DNA of 64,000 nt. It comes from Patescibacteria group bacterium. GTDB lineage: Bacteria; Patescibacteriota; Microgenomatia; UBA1400; PJMF01. The notes under the pieces are model-generated. The model searched no databases. It saw nothing but the letters and a program-made list of their open reading frames with translations, and was not told the DNA's origin. How positions within the stretch are numbered: the stretch's first letter is position 1; every line of letters starts with the position of its first letter. Shown one piece after another: positions 1 to 24,403 of the stretch. The translations under genes and the position numbers were made by a program. Where the stretch lies: positions 328,539-392,538 of the forward strand of contig BOKX01000001.1 of the NCBI GenBank assembly GCA_016861205.1. Reading direction: 5' to 3'.

Positions 1-489
1 CCACTGCACATGTGATACGAACAACATACTACCCATGCTGGCTAGATAAACAATCAGCGTCCCCAAATCAGGTTCAAGGGCAACCAAGATGGCGGGCACT
101 CCAATTACTACGCCCAAACCCACAAAATCTTTGACTTGGAGTTTGGTTTTCGTTACCAACTCAGCAACAACCAACCCCACAAAGGGAATAGCCAACTGGG
201 AAGGCTGGATCGAGAACCAACCACCGATATCGATCCAAGCTGCGATACCTCGAGTGGTTTGGCCGATGGCTAAAGGAATACACAACCCAATAACCAGTAG
301 CACATACAGTCCCCAGCGCCAGGCGCTCAAACGATGATATGACCACTGGCTTACAAAACTGAAAATGATCACACCCAGTACTAAATACACCAGCTGCTGA
401 ATAGCGAGCTGTGGGGCCACACTCCGCAGAGTCAGCACACCCAACAAACCCATCACTGTAATCACAAGAGGCAACAACCAACTCCGCAT
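1..489 (-). CDS. SEDS-family peptidoglycan glycosyltransferase (RodA/FtsW type), N-terminal 163 aa; 3' end truncated by the window edge. It is absent from the ORF track because it has no in-window stop. Probably RodA, since FtsW is encoded in the dcw cluster.
   Basis: I reverse-complemented 1..489 by hand: MRSWLLPLVITVMGLLGVLTLRS...GIAAWIDIGGWFSIQPSQLAIPFVGLVVAE...VALEPDLGTLIVYLASMG. The IQPS(E/Q) and EPDLGT motifs plus alternating TM helices are SEDS hallmarks. The ATG at 489 lies 7 nt from the ileS stop. Confidence 0.75.
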   Translation of the reverse strand, partial: MRSWLLPLVITVMGLLGVLTLRSVAPQLAIQQLVYLVLGVIIFSFVSQWSYHRLSAWRWGLYVLLVIGLCIPLAIGQTTRGIAAWIDIGGWFSIQPSQLAIPFVGLVVAELVTKTKLQVKDFVGLGVVIGVPAILVALEPDLGTLIVYLASMGSMLFVSHVQW

Positions 490-496
490 GGCGAAG

Positions 497-3310
497 CTAT
501 TGTAGCTGGAGGGTGTCACCTTTGACTAGCTTGGTCTTGGTTTTGGTTTCGATCTGTGTCTGCCACTCGGCTGGCCAACTTGGAAGTTGCACTGTCACTA
601 CATCGTCAGGTTGCAACTTGTGCGTCCGGCGCAGATTTTGAATGTCCCGCATCAACTCCCGGGCCTCGCCTTCGGCTTTCAACTCTGGGGTCAGCTGGGT
701 GTCAAGCTCGACATTCAGACCTTCAGCGGCTGTTAACCACTCAATTTGTTTGATATTGACCTCAGCGGCCAAAATAGCCAGGGCCTCGCTACTTGGTTTT
801 GGCTGCGAGGTTGACACTGTCACCTTGGCCAGCGGTTGGCGGACTTTCAAAGCAGCCTGTTTGCGGGCAGCATGGATCGCCTCGGTGGCTGTCTGGATAG
901 CTGCCATTTCGGTTTCAAGTTGCTCTGAGACCCATGTCTCGTTTGCCGTCGGCCAATCAGTGTGATGGATAGAGGTGTCAGCATCAACCATAGCTTGATG
1001 GATCACCTCACTAAAAAATGGTGTGATTGGCGCAAACAACTGTGCCAAAGTATAGAGAGCATACCCAAACACTTGGCTGACCTCGGATCGGCTGTCGCCT
1101 TTCAAGCGATCTCGGCTTAGGCGGAGATACCAAGTTGAAAGTTGGTCAACAAAAGCCATCAGCGTACGACTGGCCCGAACAACATCGTAACCATCCAGTT
1201 GTTCTGTGACTTGCTGAATAGTGTGCTCAACACGACTGAGTAGCCATTTGTCCAAAATATGCTTTGGCGGCACTTCGGGTTTAGCCACTCCAGCGGTTGT
1301 GTCAGCAAACTGTCGGTAAAAGCCCAGCATGTTCCACCACACCACGAATACTTTTCGGCGAATGTCGGCAACCTCTTTTTCAGCAAAGTTTAAGTTCTCA
1401 GACTTCATGACTGTTGAGCTCATCAAGTACAGCCGTAGACTGTCAACCCCATAGGTATTGATCAAAATCATTGGATCGGGGTAGTTTTGTTTCGACTTAC
1501 TCATTTTGCTACCGTCTTCAGCCAAAATGGTCCCCGTGGTCAAGACATTTTCAAATGGTGGCTTGCCAAAGATACCAGTTGAGATAACGTGCATGGTGTA
1601 AAACCAAGCCCGTGTTTGAGCAATGTACTCACTGACAAATTGTGCGGGGTAGTTTTGCTCAAACTCGTCTTTGTGTTCAAACGGATAGTGGATGGCGGCA
1701 AACGGCATGGAACCTGACTCCACCCAGCAATCAAACACTTCAGGAATACGCCGCCCTTTGATCGTCTTGGCCTCGTCAACCCAAACTTCGATCGCATCGA
1801 GGTATTCTCGGTGAATGTCACTGAGTTCTGCCTTAGCGGGATTGACGGCCCATTGTTTCAACTCGGCAACCGAACCAATCACTCGACGCTGCTTGCCGTC
1901 CGCTGACTGCCAAATTGGCATGGGTGTTCCCCAATAGCGAGACCGTGAAATGTTCCAGTCCGGCGCATTTTCTAAACCTTTTTGGAACCGACCATGTTTA
2001 AGATGAGCTGGAAACCAGTTGATCTGCTCATTGTTGGCTAACAACTTGTCGCGCAACTGAGCGATATCGATAAACCAAGCCGGTAGGGGTGCGTAGTACA
2101 AACGGGTACCACAGCGATAACACGTCGCCACACTATGGGTGTGGGGTTCATCACGATAGATCAAGTTGCGTTGAGCTAACTCAGCATTCACCAAAGGATT
2201 AACAGCTAAAATATCCATGCCTGCCCAAGGTTTTACCTCTGCTCTCAACTTACCTTCCTCATCGACGTGTTCAACCAACTGAATGTGGTGGTCAGTCATG
2301 ACTCGGTAGTCGTCTTCACCATAAATGGCGAGTGTTACGATACCCGTACCTTCTTCAGCGGTCACAAACTCGTCAGCCACCACCACCCCAAACTGTTCGT
2401 CGCCAATGCGCTCAGGATAGAAATCAAAGTGGGGTGTAAACGTCACCTCAGCCAGCTCTCGCCCACTCATGGTCGCAACCACTTCATAGGGCTCATCTTT
2501 TAACTCACTAAGTCTGGTCTCGGCCAAGATGTACTGTTCGCCACCTTGTTTGACTTTGACGTACTTGAGGTCTGGATTGACAGCTAAAGCTGGCGTCGCC
2601 AGTTTGTTCCAAGGCGTGGTCGACCAAGCAAGTAAGTACGTATCTTGTTCACCAACAACGGGATATTTATACGTGGTCCCAGGCTCAGTCACCTCTTGGT
2701 AACTGTTGTCCATGGCAATCTCAAAATTGGACAGAGGCGTGGCGCAACGAGGACAGTACAAAATCACTTTGCGGCCTTCGTACACGAGACCCTTATCCCA
2801 GAGCTGTTGAAAACCCCACCACACTGACTCCATGAATGTGGCATCCATGGTTTTGTAGTTGTGTTCAAAATCAACCCAGCGCCCGAGACGCCCAATGATC
2901 TTCTCCCACTCTTTGTCTAGTCGCATCACTTCAGCCCGGCAGGCGTCGTTAAACTTGTCGATACCGAGGCTTTCGATGCCTTTTTTGCCATTTTTGATCT
3001 CGAGCTTTTTCTCGATCATGTTTTCGATTGGCAGACCATGGCAATCCCAACCCCAAACCCGCTCCACACGGTAGCCTTTCATGGTCCAGTAGCGAGGAAT
3101 CACATCTTTGGTAGTTGAAGCGAGTAAATGCCCATAATGAGGCATCCCAGTTGCAAACGGGGGCCCGTCATAGAACACGTATGACTTGTCGGCTGACCGT
3201 TGCTCAACTGATTTCTCAAAAGCTTGCGTGTTCTGCCAAAATGTCAAAACCGCTTCCTCAAGCTCAGGGAAAGCTGGCGGCTGGGTAAAGGTGTGGGTTT
3301 TAGTTGGCAT
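497..3310 (-). CDS. ileS: Isoleucyl-tRNA synthetase, type 2 (eukaryote/archaeal-like class I aaRS)
   Basis: 937 aa. The HIGH motif appears as PHYGH near the N-terminus (FYDGPPFATGMPHYGHLL), and there is a KMSKS motif (GSKMSKSKQNYPDP). Length and WCISR-like editing-domain architecture fit IleRS. Confidence 0.9.
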   Translation of the reverse strand: MPTKTHTFTQPPAFPELEEAVLTFWQNTQAFEKSVEQRSADKSYVFYDGPPFATGMPHYGHLLASTTKDVIPRYWTMKGYRVERVWGWDCHGLPIENMIEKKLEIKNGKKGIESLGIDKFNDACRAEVMRLDKEWEKIIGRLGRWVDFEHNYKTMDATFMESVWWGFQQLWDKGLVYEGRKVILYCPRCATPLSNFEIAMDNSYQEVTEPGTTYKYPVVGEQDTYLLAWSTTPWNKLATPALAVNPDLKYVKVKQGGEQYILAETRLSELKDEPYEVVATMSGRELAEVTFTPHFDFYPERIGDEQFGVVVADEFVTAEEGTGIVTLAIYGEDDYRVMTDHHIQLVEHVDEEGKLRAEVKPWAGMDILAVNPLVNAELAQRNLIYRDEPHTHSVATCYRCGTRLYYAPLPAWFIDIAQLRDKLLANNEQINWFPAHLKHGRFQKGLENAPDWNISRSRYWGTPMPIWQSADGKQRRVIGSVAELKQWAVNPAKAELSDIHREYLDAIEVWVDEAKTIKGRRIPEVFDCWVESGSMPFAAIHYPFEHKDEFEQNYPAQFVSEYIAQTRAWFYTMHVISTGIFGKPPFENVLTTGTILAEDGSKMSKSKQNYPDPMILINTYGVDSLRLYLMSSTVMKSENLNFAEKEVADIRRKVFVVWWNMLGFYRQFADTTAGVAKPEVPPKHILDKWLLSRVEHTIQQVTEQLDGYDVVRASRTLMAFVDQLSTWYLRLSRDRLKGDSRSEVSQVFGYALYTLAQLFAPITPFFSEVIHQAMVDADTSIHHTDWPTANETWVSEQLETEMAAIQTATEAIHAARKQAALKVRQPLAKVTVSTSQPKPSSEALAILAAEVNIKQIEWLTAAEGLNVELDTQLTPELKAEGEARELMRDIQNLRRTHKLQPDDVVTVQLPSWPAEWQTQIETKTKTKLVKGDTLQLQ

Positions 3311-3947
3311 GGGCAGTTTCCTTTGGCAGAACTAGTTTCATTCTGGCATTGATTTCATGCGTCTCACGCTGCAACTCACCCAAGTATGCCTGAAGGATGG
3401 CTGCTTCTTGGCGAGTGACCAAATCTGAGCTCTCTAAAGTCCCGGCCAGCGGTCGACCTTCTTCATCATAGCGTTGATACACGGCACTGTCATGAGAAAT
3501 ACCCAGTCGGGTTGGTCGCACATCAAGAGTGAGCAGGTGTCGCTGATCTATGATGTCTCTAATTACTAGCCGTCGAGAGATGTTGTTTGGCTCAAACTTG
3601 CCGGCAACTTGGTCATTTTGCCAAGTTGCCTCATAACGCAACTGTGCCTTTTTGAAGTCAAACCCAAACTGGACGGGCGTTGAGAGTGGAATATCTCTAG
3701 CGCCCAGTGCTCGCCAGTCATGCAGCCAAAAGGCGTTTTTGACGATGGCCTCTAAAATGGTCACTAAGTTGAAGGTGATACCTTCTTGAGCGGTCTCCTT
3801 ATCTCGGAAGAGTCGTGTACTATCGGTTTCATCACTAAAGATTGATACAGCGGCCAAGCCGTCAAAGCTGGTCAGATCGTACTCTTCCAGCCAAGCCTCG
3901 AGCTCGGCTTTGTTCAACTGCGGTCTGTTTTCAAAAGGCACTGACAT
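3300..3947 (-). CDS. Hypothetical protein, paralog A of a tandem pair. Its stop overlaps the ileS start by 11 nt (translational coupling).
   Basis: 215 aa. Clear similarity to the adjacent 200-aa ORF in three blocks: FDGLAAVSIF vs FEGFAALSLF; ITFNLVTILEAI vs VSFNLATVLEEI; AAILQAYLGEL vs AAILQAYLGRL. I recognise no known family. Confidence 0.6.
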   Translation of the reverse strand: MSVPFENRPQLNKAELEAWLEEYDLTSFDGLAAVSIFSDETDSTRLFRDKETAQEGITFNLVTILEAIVKNAFWLHDWRALGARDIPLSTPVQFGFDFKKAQLRYEATWQNDQVAGKFEPNNISRRLVIRDIIDQRHLLTLDVRPTRLGISHDSAVYQRYDEEGRPLAGTLESSDLVTRQEAAILQAYLGELQRETHEINARMKLVLPKETAHAN

Positions 3948-3968
3948 ATGTTCTCTCCATTAGTAATA

Positions 3969-4571
3969 CTATTGTGGTTGGTTTGAGCTTGGTAGTTCTC
4001 TAGCGCGTTGAAGCAAGCGCCCGAGATACGCTTGTAAAATAGCTGCCTCTTTGGTGGTTAGGCTTGTTTCAGCTGATTGGGTTTTAACCTCACCGGTCTC
4101 GTTAAAGAATGAGTAGGCTGTTTCACGTTTGGAGTAGAGATCCTTTGTCGCTCTCAAATCAATACAAAACAAAAATGCCCCGGTGACTGCATCGGTAATT
4201 TTTAAACGACGATACTCAGCTTCAGAACCAGATTTTTGACCCAACCAAGTGGCTTGATAACGATCACAGTTGGTAACTGGATCGAACCCAAACGTGACTG
4301 ATTCGCCAAATTTAACTGAGATGCCACCTTGCTCTTGGCTGTAGCGACTCAATTTCGTCCCTTGCCGCATAATCTCTTCTAAGACAGTAGCTAGATTAAA
4401 ACTCACCGCATTAGCTTCTGGCTCTGTGAACACGTGTTCTGCCTCACTAGTGAACAAACTTAACGCCGCAAACCCTTCGAAAGCATCTAGTCCACGCTGA
4501 CCGGTATAAACTTCGTTTTCATAACCTGTTAGTTGCTTTGATGTTTCCACTATCGGCATTGGCATGGTCAA
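3969..4571 (-). CDS. Hypothetical protein, paralog B of the tandem pair. The ORF-track start is TTG; an ATG 6 nt downstream (MPMPIVE) is an alternative start.
   Basis: 200 aa, paralogous to 3300..3947. It is the first gene downstream of the T-box-like leader. Confidence 0.6.
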   Translation of the reverse strand: MTMPMPIVETSKQLTGYENEVYTGQRGLDAFEGFAALSLFTSEAEHVFTEPEANAVSFNLATVLEEIMRQGTKLSRYSQEQGGISVKFGESVTFGFDPVTNCDRYQATWLGQKSGSEAEYRRLKITDAVTGAFLFCIDLRATKDLYSKRETAYSFFNETGEVKTQSAETSLTTKEAAILQAYLGRLLQRARELPSSNQPQ

Positions 4572-4773
4572 ATCTTTCTCTTTTAACTACTAAAAAAGCC
4601 TCGATCAATCACGCTTAAGCATGATCAATCAAGGCTTTTCTCAAGAAGAGAAAAAGGTACCAACCTTGTGTACTTACTTCCAGCTGTTACGGGCTTGCCC
4701 GGCGCCATCTACTGCAGGTATGAACTGGTTCTCGGCGCACCTTGTTTGGTGATAGCCAAACTCGAGCGGTGTT
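4572..4773 (-). promoter_or_regulatory. Candidate T-box riboswitch leader, Ile-specific, with ultrashort stem I. It controls the operon paralogB-paralogA-ileS-(rodA).
   Basis: Read on the minus strand. A hairpin GUUUGG-CUAUCA-CCAAAC presents AUC (the Ile codon) followed by A in its terminal loop. The antiterminator has helix A1 CAAGG/CCUUG, a 7-nt bulge UGGUACC (canonical UGGNACC, with N=U pairing the tRNA-Ile discriminator A73), and helix A2 CUUUUUCUC/GAGAAAAG. The A1 and A2 3' strands overlap the 5' arm of the downstream terminator hairpin. A sigma70-like promoter sits upstream (see next feature). Confidence 0.6.
4588..4639 (-). terminator. Intrinsic terminator hairpin of the T-box leader
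   Basis: Arms AAAAGCCUUGAUUGAUCA / UGAUUGAUCGAGGCUUUU on the minus strand (15 of 18 complementary; nested TGATCA and GCTTAAGC palindromes), followed by a U6 run. It lies 20-25 nt upstream of the paralog B start. Confidence 0.5.
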
Positions 4774-4779
4774 AGCGCG

Positions 4780-4812
4780 ATTATACGTCAGATAGCTTGT
4801 TTGAGCAATTTC
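4780..4812 (-). promoter_or_regulatory. Sigma70-like promoter for the T-box leader/ileS operon. It overlaps the 3' end of the 316-aa gene.
   Basis: Minus strand: TTGCTC (-35, 4807..4812), a 17-nt spacer, then TATAAT (perfect -10, 4780..4785). Confidence 0.5.
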
Positions 4813-5738
4813 TGCTTACTTGTCACAAGTATGTCACGAGCTGCTTGGTATCGAGTTTGCCATGCTGGCAAGTAACTTTGCAACCATTTCTCAGTGGACT
4901 TTGGCGAAGTTTCCCAGGTACTTAATTGGCCATTAACCATGACCAAACTGGCGTAGTACTTCTCTAGTTGGTCATAAAACTGGGTTGCTTCATCCAAGTA
5001 GCGATTGGTAATCAGCCACTCAACACATACCGTGCTAAGCCGGTTGGTGTTAATTGAACCTTCATTCCCTTTGTTCTCTTTTTCAAGGTCACTATTTGTT
5101 TTGAGTGTGGACAAAATTGAGTCCAAAGCTTTGATGTTTGACTCACACTCATTGAGCAGTGCCTCCAGACGGCGGATGTTTTGGTCACGGTCAAGCGTTT
5201 GCACTAAGCTACCCCTGCCCCCTATTACTTCCAGTACAGTACTGTCGATGCCTTGCGGATTATGAACACAATCAGTTAAGGCTGTTTTAAAGGCCTTTCG
5301 AAATTCCTCCATCTTGATGTGGTCATTCGGGTAGTAAGTAAGTGTTCCTTTATTACTGATGTCGAATGGTAGTGGTTTAGGGCTGTTCACATCTCGGATA
5401 GTGATTGTGCCATGTTTAAAACTTTGTCGAACGCCCAGTTCCCAAAAGACGTTGGCGTTGTTATCTGTTGTGTCGACAACAACCACTGGGGCATTAACTA
5501 ACTCTAAGATAATTTCAGCTTGTAGATTGCCTCTTACCGCTTCAGAGCGTTTTACCTTCAGTTGTGTGTTTTCTTCGATCAAGGGTTTGAGGAATTTTTC
5601 GTAATGTTCCGTCCAGTAACTTTCGGTGTGCTCCTCGGTTGTTTTGCTGAATGGCATCACCACAAAACACGTGTTACTTGTGACTTGTGTGCTCTGTGGC
5701 AAATTTGCTGCTTTTGGGGCACGTTTCTTCCTTGCCAT
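4788..5738 (-). CDS. Hypothetical protein: N-terminal Rossmann-like nucleotide-binding domain of TIR/NDT(SLOG)-like flavour plus a C-terminal coiled-coil. It starts 30 nt downstream of ftsZ.
   Basis: 316 aa. It has a basic N-terminus, then a beta-strand-MPF motif (CFVVMPFS), and later VVVVDTTDNNANVFWELGVRQSFKHGTITI, typical of TIR/nucleoside-2-deoxyribosyltransferase-like folds. The C-terminal third is heptad-rich (IRRLEALLNECESNIKALDSILSTLK...). The family call is from pattern memory only. Confidence 0.5.
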   Translation of the reverse strand: MARKKRAPKAANLPQSTQVTSNTCFVVMPFSKTTEEHTESYWTEHYEKFLKPLIEENTQLKVKRSEAVRGNLQAEIILELVNAPVVVVDTTDNNANVFWELGVRQSFKHGTITIRDVNSPKPLPFDISNKGTLTYYPNDHIKMEEFRKAFKTALTDCVHNPQGIDSTVLEVIGGRGSLVQTLDRDQNIRRLEALLNECESNIKALDSILSTLKTNSDLEKENKGNEGSINTNRLSTVCVEWLITNRYLDEATQFYDQLEKYYASLVMVNGQLSTWETSPKSTEKWLQSYLPAWQTRYQAARDILVTSKQKLLKQAI

Positions 5739-13938: not shown

Positions 13939-16338
13939 CTAGCCCAAGTAAAAGACTTCCTCCTGCAACTCGACTTGGAATCGCTCTTTGACTCTCGCTT
14001 TTACCAGAGCAATTAGTTCTTTAACTTGAGCCGCAGTACCACCGCCTTTATTGATCATAAAGGCTGCATGTTTATGACTGACTTCAATTGGACCACAGTG
14101 TTCACCTTTCAGTCCAGCTTGATCAATCAGGAAACCACCTGAGATATGTTCTCGATCAACAAACTGAGGAAAAAGTTTTTTGAGCTCAGGGGTGTTCGGG
14201 ACGTTTTGAAAAATACAACCTGAGCTGGGTTCTCCTAATGGCTGGGTTGTGGCTCGATATTGAGTCGCCTTTTTAACTAACTCAGCTGAGGTCTGTGGAT
14301 CACCAGGTGGCAATGCAAACTCTACTGCCACAACCACTTCACCGCTTGTCTGGAAACGAGAGTGATCGTACGCAAAGTCACATTCGGACTGATCGAGCCA
14401 AGTTAGTTGAAATTGTTTATCAAGAACTTGTACTCGGTGGATGTGACTACCAATCAAATCAGCTAAATAATGCGCGTTGTTCACAACCGCGCCACCCAAC
14501 GTGCCTGGCACTCCCAAAAAGTACTCTAACCCCGCCAGCTTCCAATCAATCGCCTGTCGGACCAGCAAACCCATTCGGGTACCGGCACCGGCTCGGATCA
14601 CCCGTTTCTCGTCAACATAGGTATCAGTCAGCTCCACACCAGAGTTGGCCAGGCGGATAACTATGCCACGAATCCCTTCATCAGCTACGATGACATTGCT
14701 TGCCCCGCCCAACATGGTAATCGGTATCCCGCGGCGCTGGCTCCACGCCCAGATTTGACCAAGTTGTTCGGCCTGTGTTATTTCGGCCAATACGTCAGCT
14801 GGGCCACCGATCTTAAAGTACGTCACACTGGCCATTGGCACTGAAAAACGCCACTCTATATCAGGGAAAACCTCAGCCAATTCCTTTGCCCACTCAGTTG
14901 GATAGAGCTGGTCATGGATTTGGTAAATGTCCCCAGCACCAACTGTCAGCACCACATCGCCTGCCGCTAGTTGGGTTCGACAAAAAGCAACAACCGCTGC
15001 ATTCGTTTTTAGGTTTTCTACCTTGGACTGTGGGTAGCGCTCCCGAATCGCCTGACATAGTGTGTCACTGCTGATTGTGTCATCAAACTGCTCCCGGGCT
15101 GATGGGAAAATGTCTGTCATAACCACTTGGTCAGCTTGCTCAAATGCTGTCACGAACTCATCAAACAAGGCTTTCGTTCGTGAAAAGGTGTGACTTTGAA
15201 AAGCCACGACCAGTTTCTGATCTGGAAACCACTCTTTGTACGCTTTGATGACTTCAGCAACTTCGTGCGGATGATGTGCATAGTCATCATAGTAACGAAC
15301 CCCGGCTTTTTCACCCTTGAACTCGGCTCGCCGCTGCGTGGATCGAAATGTGGCTAAGGCATCGACGATGTCTGAAATGCTCAGCCCTAGTTGGTGGCAT
15401 GCTGCGACGGCGGCAACTGCATTCATCATGTTGTACTTACCAGGCAACTGCAGTCTCAGAGGATAGTTTTGACCTTGATACGTCAGCATACCGGCACTGA
15501 CACCTCGGATCACTTGATACTGTGTTAACTCAAACACCGCATTTGATCCTTGCCCGTAGTAAACGATCTGAGCTTTAAGCTGTGGCTCTCGCCGAAGCAT
15601 CATTTCAATATGTGGCCGGTCATCACTGTTGACGACTAAAAGTCCGTCAGTTGGCAGTTGCGCAAAAAATGTTTGAAAAACTTCCAGTGTGTGGTCAAAA
15701 TCTCGATAGACATCTGGATGGTCGAAACGCAAGTTGGTACACACCGTGAGATGTGGCTTAAGGAAGGAAAACCGTGGGGTGATCGCTTCTTGCCGGCTGG
15801 GGGCAGCGGGATCTACAACGTACTCATCAGCCTCGGCCACGAAATAGGGACTGTCACTCGACCATTGACCAGACTTGTTTAACCCAATAATATTTCCGAC
15901 CCCAATCGCAAAACTGGGTTTTTTGCCTACTTTCTCTAACACCCACGCAATCATGGCACTCGTGGTTGATTTGCCCCCCACACCACAAACAGCGATGCCA
16001 TGTTTGGCATTAAATAGTTGTCCCAAAGCTTCAGCGTGGGACCACGTTGGTAAACCTTGGTGTTGAGCTTGTTTGACTAATGGATTTGCTGGTCCTTGAT
16101 GTGCGGCTGTGTACACCACCGCTTCAATATCACTCGGCAAAACTTGTTCAAAACCTGTGTCTATCACCACTCCCAATCGGTTTAACATCGGTTGGGTAAC
16201 GAACTCTTCAGCCACGTCACAACCTCTGACTTGAATGCCAGCTTCAGCGAGACACTGTGCCAGGGCAGTCATAGCTACCCCTTTAATACCAATCAAATAG
16301 ACCGATTTGGCTGTTAGTAGTTCCATAGACCGCTGCAC
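13939..16338 (-). CDS. murC-murB: Bifunctional fusion: UDP-N-acetylmuramate--L-alanine ligase (MurC) + UDP-N-acetylenolpyruvoylglucosamine reductase (MurB)
   Basis: 799 aa. N-terminal half: GIKGVAMTALAQ Rossmann motif, CGVGGKSTTSAM Mur-ligase P-loop, DDYAHHPHEV (MurC motif). C-terminal ~300 aa: FKIGGPADVLAEI...LGGASNVIVADEG (MurB FAD-binding domain). Confidence 0.85.
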   Translation of the reverse strand: MQRSMELLTAKSVYLIGIKGVAMTALAQCLAEAGIQVRGCDVAEEFVTQPMLNRLGVVIDTGFEQVLPSDIEAVVYTAAHQGPANPLVKQAQHQGLPTWSHAEALGQLFNAKHGIAVCGVGGKSTTSAMIAWVLEKVGKKPSFAIGVGNIIGLNKSGQWSSDSPYFVAEADEYVVDPAAPSRQEAITPRFSFLKPHLTVCTNLRFDHPDVYRDFDHTLEVFQTFFAQLPTDGLLVVNSDDRPHIEMMLRREPQLKAQIVYYGQGSNAVFELTQYQVIRGVSAGMLTYQGQNYPLRLQLPGKYNMMNAVAAVAACHQLGLSISDIVDALATFRSTQRRAEFKGEKAGVRYYDDYAHHPHEVAEVIKAYKEWFPDQKLVVAFQSHTFSRTKALFDEFVTAFEQADQVVMTDIFPSAREQFDDTISSDTLCQAIRERYPQSKVENLKTNAAVVAFCRTQLAAGDVVLTVGAGDIYQIHDQLYPTEWAKELAEVFPDIEWRFSVPMASVTYFKIGGPADVLAEITQAEQLGQIWAWSQRRGIPITMLGGASNVIVADEGIRGIVIRLANSGVELTDTYVDEKRVIRAGAGTRMGLLVRQAIDWKLAGLEYFLGVPGTLGGAVVNNAHYLADLIGSHIHRVQVLDKQFQLTWLDQSECDFAYDHSRFQTSGEVVVAVEFALPPGDPQTSAELVKKATQYRATTQPLGEPSSGCIFQNVPNTPELKKLFPQFVDREHISGGFLIDQAGLKGEHCGPIEVSHKHAAFMINKGGGTAAQVKELIALVKARVKERFQVELQEEVFYLG

Positions 16339-22996: not shown

Positions 22997-24403
22997 CTAC
23001 TCTATCATAGTCGTCAGTCGTGACTCAAGCTCAGCGATTGGCACCCGAACTTGCTCGCCAGTATCACGATCTCGCCAAGTGACGGTCTGATCTTCGAGCG
23101 TCTGGAAGTCGATAGTCAGACAAACTGGTGTCCCAATCTCATCTTGCGACAAGTACCGTTTACCAATGTTTCCACGATCATCCCAAACAATTGCAAATTT
23201 TTTGGCTAGTTTGGCATACACTTCGTCAGCCGCCGCCACCAGTTCAGGTTTATTCTTGAGGAGCGGAAAAACAGCTGCCTTGTACGGAGCCAACCTGGGG
23301 CTGAGTCGGAGCACCAACCTGCCTCGCTCGCTGTCTTGCCAGAGAGCGTCACTGAGCACCATCAAGAAAAGTCGATTTACCCCAACAGCCGGCTCGATCA
23401 CGTGCGGAATAAACTTCTCACCCGTGTGTGGGTCGGTGTACTCCAAACTTTGGCCTGAATGTTCTTGGTGTTGTTTCAAGTCATAGTCTGTCCGATATGC
23501 AACCCCCCACAGCTCCTTCCAACCGAATGCGAATTGGTAATCCAAGTCATAGGTGTCCTGACTGTAGTGGCTGCGCTCCTTGTCCGTATGTTGGCGCCAT
23601 CGCAAGTTTGACTCCTTGATACCCAATGTGTGCGTTACAAACTGCCACATGGCCTGTTTCCAGTCTTCCAACGTCTGTTGCCAGTTGGTCTGCGCCGGGT
23701 TGAAGAAGTACTCAATTTCAGCTTGTTCGAACTCGAGGGTACGGAACACAAATTGACCGGTGGTGATTTCATTTCGGAAACTTTTACCAATGTTCCCTAC
23801 TCCGAATGGCAGTTGCACTCGAGTGGAGTCAAGGATGTTTTTGAAGTTAGTAAAGATACCCTGGGCAGTCTCACCTCGCAAATAGACCACACTTTTTTCG
23901 CCGGCGACCGTTCCGATAGATGTCTCAAACAACAAGTTGAACGCTTTTGGTTCGGTAACCGGGTTCCCATCTGGACTCAAGACCTGGTGCTCGGCGATAA
24001 AGGTGGCCATGTCTGGCAACTGCATGTTTTCTACAGCCACCGGTTCGCTCAGCTTGTCAGAGTGTTTTTCCAACCATGCCTCGATCAAGTGGTCAGCCCG
24101 GTATCGTTTGTGGGTTACCACATCTTCTACCAGTGGATCACTAAACGAGCCGACGTGACCAGACGCTACCCAAGTTTCGGGATGCTGCAAAATTTGGGTA
24201 TCAAGACCGATCATATCTCGCCGGGTGGTAATAAACTCGTGCCACCACAAGTTGCGGAGGTTGCGCAGCAGCTCCGTTCCCAAAGGCCCGTAATCATAGG
24301 AATTGGCTAAACCACCATAGATAACAGAAGTGGGATACACAAAACCACGTCGCTTAGCTAAAGACACTACGTCATCTAATGTGAACCGAGTTTGATCAGA
24401 CAT
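22997..24403 (-). CDS. glyQS: Glycyl-tRNA synthetase, homodimeric alpha2 type. Start set at MSDQTRF (24403); the ORF track extends 18 codons further upstream.
   Basis: FVYPTSVIYGGLANSYDYGPLGTELLRNL is the conserved class II GlyRS (alpha2) N-terminal motif; ~468 aa. The T-box leader ends right at this ATG. Confidence 0.85.
   Translation of the reverse strand: MSDQTRFTLDDVVSLAKRRGFVYPTSVIYGGLANSYDYGPLGTELLRNLRNLWWHEFITTRRDMIGLDTQILQHPETWVASGHVGSFSDPLVEDVVTHKRYRADHLIEAWLEKHSDKLSEPVAVENMQLPDMATFIAEHQVLSPDGNPVTEPKAFNLLFETSIGTVAGEKSVVYLRGETAQGIFTNFKNILDSTRVQLPFGVGNIGKSFRNEITTGQFVFRTLEFEQAEIEYFFNPAQTNWQQTLEDWKQAMWQFVTHTLGIKESNLRWRQHTDKERSHYSQDTYDLDYQFAFGWKELWGVAYRTDYDLKQHQEHSGQSLEYTDPHTGEKFIPHVIEPAVGVNRLFLMVLSDALWQDSERGRLVLRLSPRLAPYKAAVFPLLKNKPELVAAADEVYAKLAKKFAIVWDDRGNIGKRYLSQDEIGTPVCLTIDFQTLEDQTVTWRDRDTGEQVRVPIAELESRLTTMIE

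Follow-up and report, generated by a model that had tools for sequence, protein, structure and literature searches.

The 64,000-nt stretch of contig BOKX01000001.1 from a Patescibacteria group bacterium that was analyzed here (the window) carries, upstream of the isoleucyl-tRNA synthetase gene ileS, a leader RNA that is very probably an isoleucine-specific T-box riboswitch, one where the decoding architecture of class III T-boxes is combined with a transcription-termination platform. The leader spans 4771 to 4592 on the minus strand and comprises a decoding part, stem II, a pseudoknot sequence, an antiterminator and a terminator. These elements were read directly from the minus-strand sequence, and all coordinates are window positions. 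A preliminary description of this DNA had proposed an Ile T-box with an ultrashort stem I at the site; the stem II S-turn, the stem IIA/B pseudoknot sequence and the lack of stem III were absent from it. The features of the leader and its putative promoter are as follows:

4780 to 4808, minus strand: putative promoter, with TTGCTC at 4808-4803, a 17-nt spacer and TATAAT at 4785-4780
4738 to 4771, minus strand: K-turn-like base enclosing stem I, formed by CACC-GCUC-GA at 4771-4762 and AA-GGUG at 4743-4738
4761-4744, minus strand: stem I, 6 bp, GUUUGG at 4761-4756 paired with CCAAAC at 4749-4744
4755-4750, minus strand: apical loop CUAUCA, 6 nt, with the Specifier AUC at 4753-4751 followed by the purine A at 4750
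4702 to 4738, minus strand: stem II, with GCGCC at 4738-4734 and GGCGC at 4706-4702 forming its base
4733-4728 and 4713-4707, minus strand: S-turn of stem II, GAGAAC and AGUAGAU respectively, as read in the sequence
4682 to 4701, minus strand: stem IIA/B pseudoknot sequence CGGGCAAGCCCGUAACAGCU, read in the sequence, with a three-dimensional fold that is a prediction
4701-4699 with 4692-4690, and 4695-4693 with 4684-4682, minus strand: IIA (CGG/CCG) and IIB (AGC/GCU)
4669 to 4681, minus strand: purine-rich linker of 13 nt, GGAAGUAAGUACA, in the place taken by stem III in other T-boxes
4630 to 4668, minus strand: antiterminator, with A1 formed by CAAGGU at 4668-4663 and GCCUUG at 4635-4630
4662-4656, minus strand: T-box bulge UGGUACC, 7 nt, between A1 and A2
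4655-4648 with 4643-4636, minus strand: A2, UUUUUCUC paired with GAGAAAAG, loop UUCUU
4592 to 4636, minus strand: intrinsic terminator, formed by a hairpin of 18-21 bp (about 4635-4598) and, after it, U6 (4597-4592)

That this is a real T-box, as had been claimed, was supported by a covariance model, R1, which was built from 10 other leaders of simple architecture, among them the actinobacterial-type metagenomic leader L057 (related loci carry L numbers), with the window and its nearest relative left out. The model was restricted to these 10 leaders because several sequences were misaligned in a MAFFT alignment of 18. R1 matched 4679-4771 on the minus strand with 73.2 bits (E 2e-15), and the next match in the window reached only 8.8 bits. 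The helices are further supported by covariation. In a MAFFT alignment of 12 leaders both-sided changes were seen at 6/6 stem I pairs and at all five pairs of the stem II base, so that the ultrashort stem I with its loop CUAUCA stands as first described. In these 12 leaders 91% of cells were paired, as compared to 72% in shuffled alignments and 27-40% when the partner columns were slid, and the observed covariation score was reached by none of 500 shuffles. When 24 R1 hits were aligned to the model the figures were higher (95.9% of cells paired vs. 67.4% in shuffles, covariation score 0.722 vs. 0.184), but this alignment was fitted to the R1 structure and leans towards it, a bias of which the 12-leader MAFFT count is free. 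One IIB pair switches between A-U and U-A among the 12 leaders; stem IIA never varies, and its evidence is therefore neutral.

The specificity of the leader follows from its apical loop. The same leader type was found directly upstream of ileS in 12 of the 13 close relatives, which we defined as loci with an IleS at least 56% identical to that of the window; L005 has no leader, and L008 has a divergent leader without the pseudoknot sequence. The close-relative leaders present a hairpin of 4-8 bp with the loop NNAUCR, and their stem sequences vary freely. Across about 20 homologous leaders, which are mostly located before ileS, nothing in the apical loop is invariant except AUC followed by a purine, in line with the isoleucine specificity proposed earlier. 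In the window the K-turn-like base has a 4-nt bulge and an A.A where the consensus shows A.G, as do several relatives with a canonical K-turn, e.g. L014, L057 and L060. Stem II carries an apical CAG/CUG helix with the loop UUCAUAC, and its GAAGAA...AGUAGAC motif is kept throughout the leader family. At the stem III site there are two arrangements: a hairpin is inserted in L006, L014, L018, L060, L083 and L102, and only an AAGUA-type linker is found in the window, L003, L004, L007, L009, L010, L021 and L120.

We also considered a longer stem I that extends into the upstream 316-aa gene. It was ruled out, since the 6-bp stem directly adjoins the two K-turn strands, and it is also contradicted by TATAAT-like -10 boxes, which related leaders with different upstream genes have 10-25 nt upstream of the K-turn.

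Further leaders were sought by a metagenome scan with the pattern TAGAYNNNNNCGGGYAAGCCCG, in which about 20 of 120 loci were T-boxes and most of the others carried an unrelated repeat. This repeat, GTAGATACCCACGGGCAAGCCCGTGGCAC(T), is widespread (e.g. L028-L047) and occurs twice on some contigs, as in L028 (79-100 and 614-635) and in L110.

The 3' half of the leader was analyzed differently. As MAFFT alignment of full leaders was good over the 5' half but poor over the antiterminator and terminator, these parts were folded sequence by sequence. The 5' strand of the terminator hairpin is the 3' strand of A1 (GCCUUG, 4635-4630), so the antiterminator and the terminator exclude each other. In folding calculations the terminator conformer had -32.4 kcal/mol vs. 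-12.3 kcal/mol for the antiterminator with its bulge held open, and the fold of the full leader gave z = -3.3 relative to shuffled sequence. The competition between the A1/UGGUACC/A2 antiterminator and a terminator, which had been noted before, recurs in 13/13 related leaders, where the overlapping terminator is the stronger structure (-22 to -33 kcal/mol) and has U6-U8 after it, and the A1 pair beside the bulge varies among close relatives (U.G, C-G or U-A). In the window the U-tract ends 26 nt before ATG 4565, the start in public gene calls; the earlier distance of 20 nt is correct from TTG 4571 only. The purine-rich stretch before the start codon, i.e. the ribosome-binding region, is left outside the hairpin, and together hairpin and U-tract have what we read as the layout of a transcription attenuator. 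A terminator scan passed over this hairpin, which does not fit the limits that the scan sets for stem and loop.

Taken together, these features suggest the following course of events. Transcription would start near 4773, just downstream of TATAAT, from a promoter that overlaps the 3' end of the 316-aa gene, as had been proposed (its TGA stop, 4790-4788, falls inside 4808-4780). The nascent RNA would form the K-turn-like bend, the 6-bp stem I showing AUC-A in its apical loop, the S-turn stem II and the IIA/B pseudoknot. The 3' ACCA of an uncharged tRNA would then pair with UGGU of the bulge and thereby stabilise the weak antiterminator (about -12 kcal/mol), allowing RNA polymerase to continue through paralog A and paralog B to ileS and probably to the SEDS gene as well. 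With charged tRNA the stronger terminator (about -32 kcal/mol, U6) would prevail and transcription would stop 26 nt before the first gene. Bacterial tRNA-Ile has the discriminator A73, which would pair with the U of the UGGU bulge. The dependence of the switch on tRNA is our inference.

The genes that flank or follow the leader are:

4788-5738, minus strand: 316-aa gene with a TIR-like N-terminal domain, between ftsZ and the leader
3969 to 4565, minus strand: paralog A, 198 aa, for which the open reading frame (ORF) lister starts at TTG 4571
3300 to 3947, minus strand: paralog B, 215 aa, separated from paralog A by a 21-nt gap and overlapping the ileS start by 11 nt
497 to 3310, minus strand: ileS, 937 aa, containing tRNA-synt_1 and Anticodon_1, with DUF5915 at the C-terminus
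1 to 489, minus strand: N-terminal part of a SEDS (FtsW/RodA) gene, 7 nt past the ileS stop and running off the window

The closest relatives of the window IleS are encoded in metagenome-assembled genomes titled Candidatus Pacebacteria or Patescibacteria group, or given generic labels, and are at most 76% identical to it; Pacebacteria sits in Minisyncoccota in the NCBI taxonomy. The order FtsA-FtsZ-(leader)-IleS-SEDS-L21 is common to the window and nine relative loci, which argues that the window is part of this lineage by descent and is not merely the recipient of a foreign ileS; it does not derive from a Firmicute. The leader is the ancestral ileS leader of this Patescibacteria lineage. It had been described as standing ahead of an operon whose first two genes are not ileS, and a cassette does come first here. 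The leader itself is the normal one of its host lineage; what is unusual is that a variable cassette was inserted between it and ileS. The SEDS gene after ileS was confirmed by tblastn with the SEDS gene of L147, a locus from a closely related strain, and by a PF01098 match on the L147 ortholog. On the other side of the leader, the 316-aa gene matches a PADLOC TIR effector (E 2.9e-7) and phrog_3634 (E 1.3e-22) and has no counterpart at the corresponding place in more distant relatives; it has the look of an accessory gene that was inserted, perhaps one with a part in defence.

Paralogs A and B are 32% identical to each other (E 5e-27) and have no family match in Pfam, PADLOC or PHROGs, in agreement with their first description as uncharacterised paralogs. 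An AlphaFold model was poor and fold matches were weak. A profile made from both and run against 1.84 billion representative proteins returned only themselves and one 97-aa fragment, a type-A homolog with 51% identity that is encoded on the 909-nt metagenomic contig L026. Ahead of this homolog lies a leader that scores 75 bits and has an identical stem I; the leader-then-paralog arrangement is hence present in a second, diverged organism. Upstream of that leader, positions 1-200 of L026 gave no tblastn match to ftsZ or to the 316-aa gene, and on the reverse strand they seem to hold the beginning of an ORF that points away from the leader. The unit of leader and paralog A may therefore be located at a different locus in the L026 organism.

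Comparison with the L147 strain, which has an IleS 99.4% identical to that of the window (synonymous divergence, dS, 0.042), illustrates how variable the cassette is. The organism of the window is represented in sequencing run DRR258780, and strains related to it in SRR23814898 and SRR27676190. L147 has the order FtsZ, 314-aa gene, leader, a type-B gene only, IleS, SEDS and L21, with paralog A absent. Up to the U-tract its leader is about 99% identical to that of the window; divergence begins right past the U-tract and stops some 40 nt short of the start of ileS. What lies between terminator and ileS (window 3350-4591, L147 1744-2360) is thus a mosaic, strain-variable cassette, and it is absent from more distant relatives. 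Within it the two type-B proteins are 81% identical, at a dS of 1.5 as compared to 0.04 for ileS, so that paralog B is a deeply diverged allele of its L147 counterpart. The corresponding ratio of nonsynonymous to synonymous divergence (dN/dS) is 0.076, and paralog B is therefore a real gene under purifying selection; we conclude the same for paralog A. Between the terminator and ileS, L007 (3668-3964) and L021 (3599-3960) have about 300 nt without a convincing ORF, and these stretches have in common a segment GTAG(G/A)TCGTGAGGATTTATTCCTTCAGGAGACAGCAACCAATAGTT.

The tight gene spacing from paralog A to SEDS, together with the lack of any terminator-like site on the coding strand of the operon in the terminator scan, argues for one transcript. 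From the spacing, control by the leader would extend to ileS and SEDS, and expression of paralogs A and B is probably tied to the charging of tRNA-Ile. Elsewhere in the window, in a cluster of cell-wall and division genes, a single 799-aa ORF (13939-16338, minus strand) is a candidate MurC-MurB fusion, as its residues 13-478 match MurC and 493-799 match MurB.

Several observations weigh against an Ile T-box that terminates transcription and controls the whole operon. Rfam model RF00230 did not match the leader, neither at gathering in the whole window nor at E<=10 in 4400-5000. The preliminary description had named this search as a check and a missing covariance-model match among its grounds for refutation, so that its own terms formally speak against it here; the outcome reflects the model and not the RNA. 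Classical long-stem-I leaders with a Val Specifier likewise fall below RF00230 gathering, and among 33 related or pattern-matched loci only L017, a classical leader, passes (93.4 bits), which makes the negative result not diagnostic. Stem III is absent from the window leader, where the linker GGAAGUAAGUACA stands alone at 4681-4669, and according to PMC7583486 stem III belongs integrally and indispensably to the discriminator of T-boxes and is required for binding of the tRNA 3' end in those studied, and transcriptional T-boxes generally need a long stem I. The promoter had been called strong, a description that holds for its -10 only: TTGCTC agrees with TTGACA at 3/6 positions, and a promoter scan therefore did not report the site. 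No tRNA-Ile gene was found in the window or in any related locus fetched, and the cognate tRNA is presumed to have a GAU anticodon and A73. The last of these points concerns what the leader controls. A sequence ATGACA-17-TATGAT (10/12 matches) lies within paralog B at 3493 to 3465 on the minus strand, about 155 nt before ileS, and the same hexamers are found at the equivalent place in L147 (2217-2245) despite the saturated synonymous divergence (dS 1.5). Possibly the T-box works but controls only the cassette, ileS and SEDS being transcribed mainly from this site. We consider this improbable. Promoter-like sites are no more numerous than in shuffled sequence, and the hexamers fall in codons of the conserved residues DSAVYQRYDE, so their conservation may reflect that of the protein. 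Moreover, in 12 relatives no control element other than the leader is visible before ileS, and the 11-nt overlap at the ileS start suggests that paralog B and ileS are expressed together. Evidence for an internal ileS promoter in paralog B is, on these grounds, weak.

Two further explanations question the mode of action or the function of the leader itself. The decoding module fits a class whose members "mostly regulate translation initiation" (PMC10482949), and the 3' hairpin might accordingly sequester the ribosome-binding site without any termination. This is very unlikely, since the hairpin is followed by U6, ends 26 nt before ATG and excludes the purine-rich region before the start codon, and since U6-U8 is kept in all 13 related leaders; in L057, by contrast, GAGGAG is paired and there is no U-tract. 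Even less credible is that the leader is a decaying, non-functional relic, or that hairpins have come together by chance with a terminator belonging to the upstream 316-aa gene. The missing RF00230 match and stem III would agree with such an origin, but R1 matched with an E of 2e-15, every functional motif is intact, the form without stem III recurs in at least 8 diverged relatives, and the aptamer differs at one position only between the window and L147 strains. We therefore retain the Ile-specific T-box acting by transcription termination as the explanation that best accounts for the leader.

A motif search revealed a second T-box in the window, where AGGGUGGAACC was found at 24507-24497, upstream of a gene for glycine--tRNA ligase (NF003211, E 1.5e-175) with its true start at ATG 24403:

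about 24595 to 24431, minus strand: Gly T-box leader, upstream of glyS (22997-24403)

The leader begins with UGAUGA, AGUGG, the loop UUGGCAG, CCACU and GAG, which make up a K-turn and a 5-bp stem with GGC-A in an apical position. Stem I is followed by an A-rich linker, by stem III, by a UGGA bulge and finally by a terminator with U5, and there is neither stem II nor a IIA/B pseudoknot. A local search with RF00230 gave 29.9 bits (E 4.4e-5), in an alignment where 7 nt replace 76 stem I positions and which deletes both stem II and IIA/B. Of six metagenomic relatives of the glycyl-tRNA synthetase (73-79% identity), five (L149-L153) share this layout, and their stems covary.

The short-stem-I design is not restricted to isoleucine, because other apical triplets were seen in three further loci. 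L070 (4367-4600) has a short-stem-I T-box leader with an apical GAC (Asp) and a terminator, followed by an ORF starting MRKIPTSMATQHPDN, which resembles archaeal-type phosphoenolpyruvate carboxylase. L071 (4051-4300) has AAC (Asn), a UGGC bulge and a terminator, and L056 (991-1300) has UCGUCA, a UGGA bulge and a terminator.

What we consider new in the Ile leader is the terminator platform, the missing stem III, the host among the Patescibacteria and the variable cassette of orphan genes under the control of the leader. No paper on this was found when a collection of full texts was searched for T-box terms together with Patescibacteria or the candidate phyla radiation. On a more tentative note, these leaders might belong to a hitherto undescribed T-box family, minimal in form, acting by termination of transcription and widespread among Patescibacteria, its Ile form having a class III clamp without stem III and its Gly form lacking both elbow platform and stem II, and in the window the Ile form would have captured a cassette beside a TIR-like gene. 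The conserved leaders found here extend T-box regulation to the small genomes of Patescibacteria, in which counts of T-boxes are probably too low because RF00230 misses this group of leaders. If both the Ile and the Gly leader work, sensing of tRNA charging during transcription needs far less RNA than current models assume. The family, with its short stem I, its terminator and often no stem III, also makes two ideas in PMC7583486 directly testable on an RNA of about 180 nt, namely that T-boxes acting on transcription require a long stem I for rapid capture of the tRNA and that stem III is essential to the domain that senses charging. The orphan paralogs gain a predicted regulatory context, namely induction on deacylation of tRNA-Ile, and if the Ile switch has indeed captured the cassette beside the TIR-like gene, accessory genes respond to the charging of this tRNA.

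T-boxes have been divided into four classes (PMC10482949). Class I combines stem II with a long stem I that carries an elbow-binding platform; class II is glycine-specific, with a long stem I and a linker replacing stem II; class III has a short stem I, whose apical loop of five or six nucleotides holds the Specifier, and requires stem II, the Nocardia farcinica ileS leader being an example; and class IV has a stem I of intermediate length. Of general T-box features the window leader has a cognate Specifier followed by a purine, a UGGNACC bulge between A1 and A2 and mutually exclusive structures, and it lacks stem III with flanking purines and the RF00230 match. With a stem I of 6 bp and a 6-nt apical loop, set between the K-turn strands, it falls outside class I. 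Its short stem I with the Specifier in the apical loop, its S-turn stem II and its IIA/B pseudoknot sequence are those of class III, and at the place of the K-turn that links stem I to stem II in this class it has the K-turn-like base with its 4-nt bulge and A.A, but the usual mode of action in that class, sequestration of the Shine-Dalgarno (SD) sequence, is not seen, as a terminator with U6 ends 26 nt before the start codon. As PMC10482949 says of classes III and IV that they "mostly regulate translation initiation", class III leaders that act on transcription may in part be known already.

This minimal form of the Ile T-box has been known mainly from Actinobacteria, where ileS leaders have been described from Nocardia farcinica, Mycobacterium tuberculosis and M. 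smegmatis (Sherwood et al. 2015, as cited in PMC7583486). The likeness to actinobacterial Ile T-boxes that had been pointed out earlier holds for the decoding module: the two have in common a short stem I without elbow platform, AUC and a purine in a hexanucleotide loop, a K-turn or, in the window, a K-turn-like base of stem I, an S-turn stem II, a IIA/B pseudoknot of the CGGGUAAGCCCG type, the UGGUACC bulge and the regulation of ileS. It does not hold for the expression platform, since the window leader has a terminator with U-tract where the actinobacterial leaders sequester the SD sequence, and stem III is missing; the Patescibacteria-type host and the two genes of no known family between leader and ileS also set it apart. 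This comparison rests on reviews and on the metagenomic leader L057. We infer that L057 is actinobacterial-type from its GC content and from the IleS N-terminus: it is a high-GC leader before an actinobacterial-looking IleS, with the loop CCAUCA and with S-turn and pseudoknot sequence as in the window. Its 3' helix pairs with GAGGAG just before the start codon, and no U-tract is present. As L057 has the same module but sequesters the SD sequence, two expression platforms can be compared on a common decoding module.

With class I leaders of the Bacillus subtilis tyrS type (RF00230) the window leader shares an antiterminator that competes with a terminator and its U-tract, the T-box sequence, the S-turn stem II, the IIA/B pseudoknot and a Specifier that matches the synthetase; it lacks their long stem I, the internal Specifier loop, the distal platform of interdigitated T-loops and stem III. 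The Gly leader resembles class II (glyQS) in its GGC Specifier, its UGGA bulge, the linker replacing stem II, its stem III and its terminator, but its stem I of 4-5 bp carries the Specifier in the apical loop. With a short stem I and no stem II, the Gly leader lies outside all four published classes.

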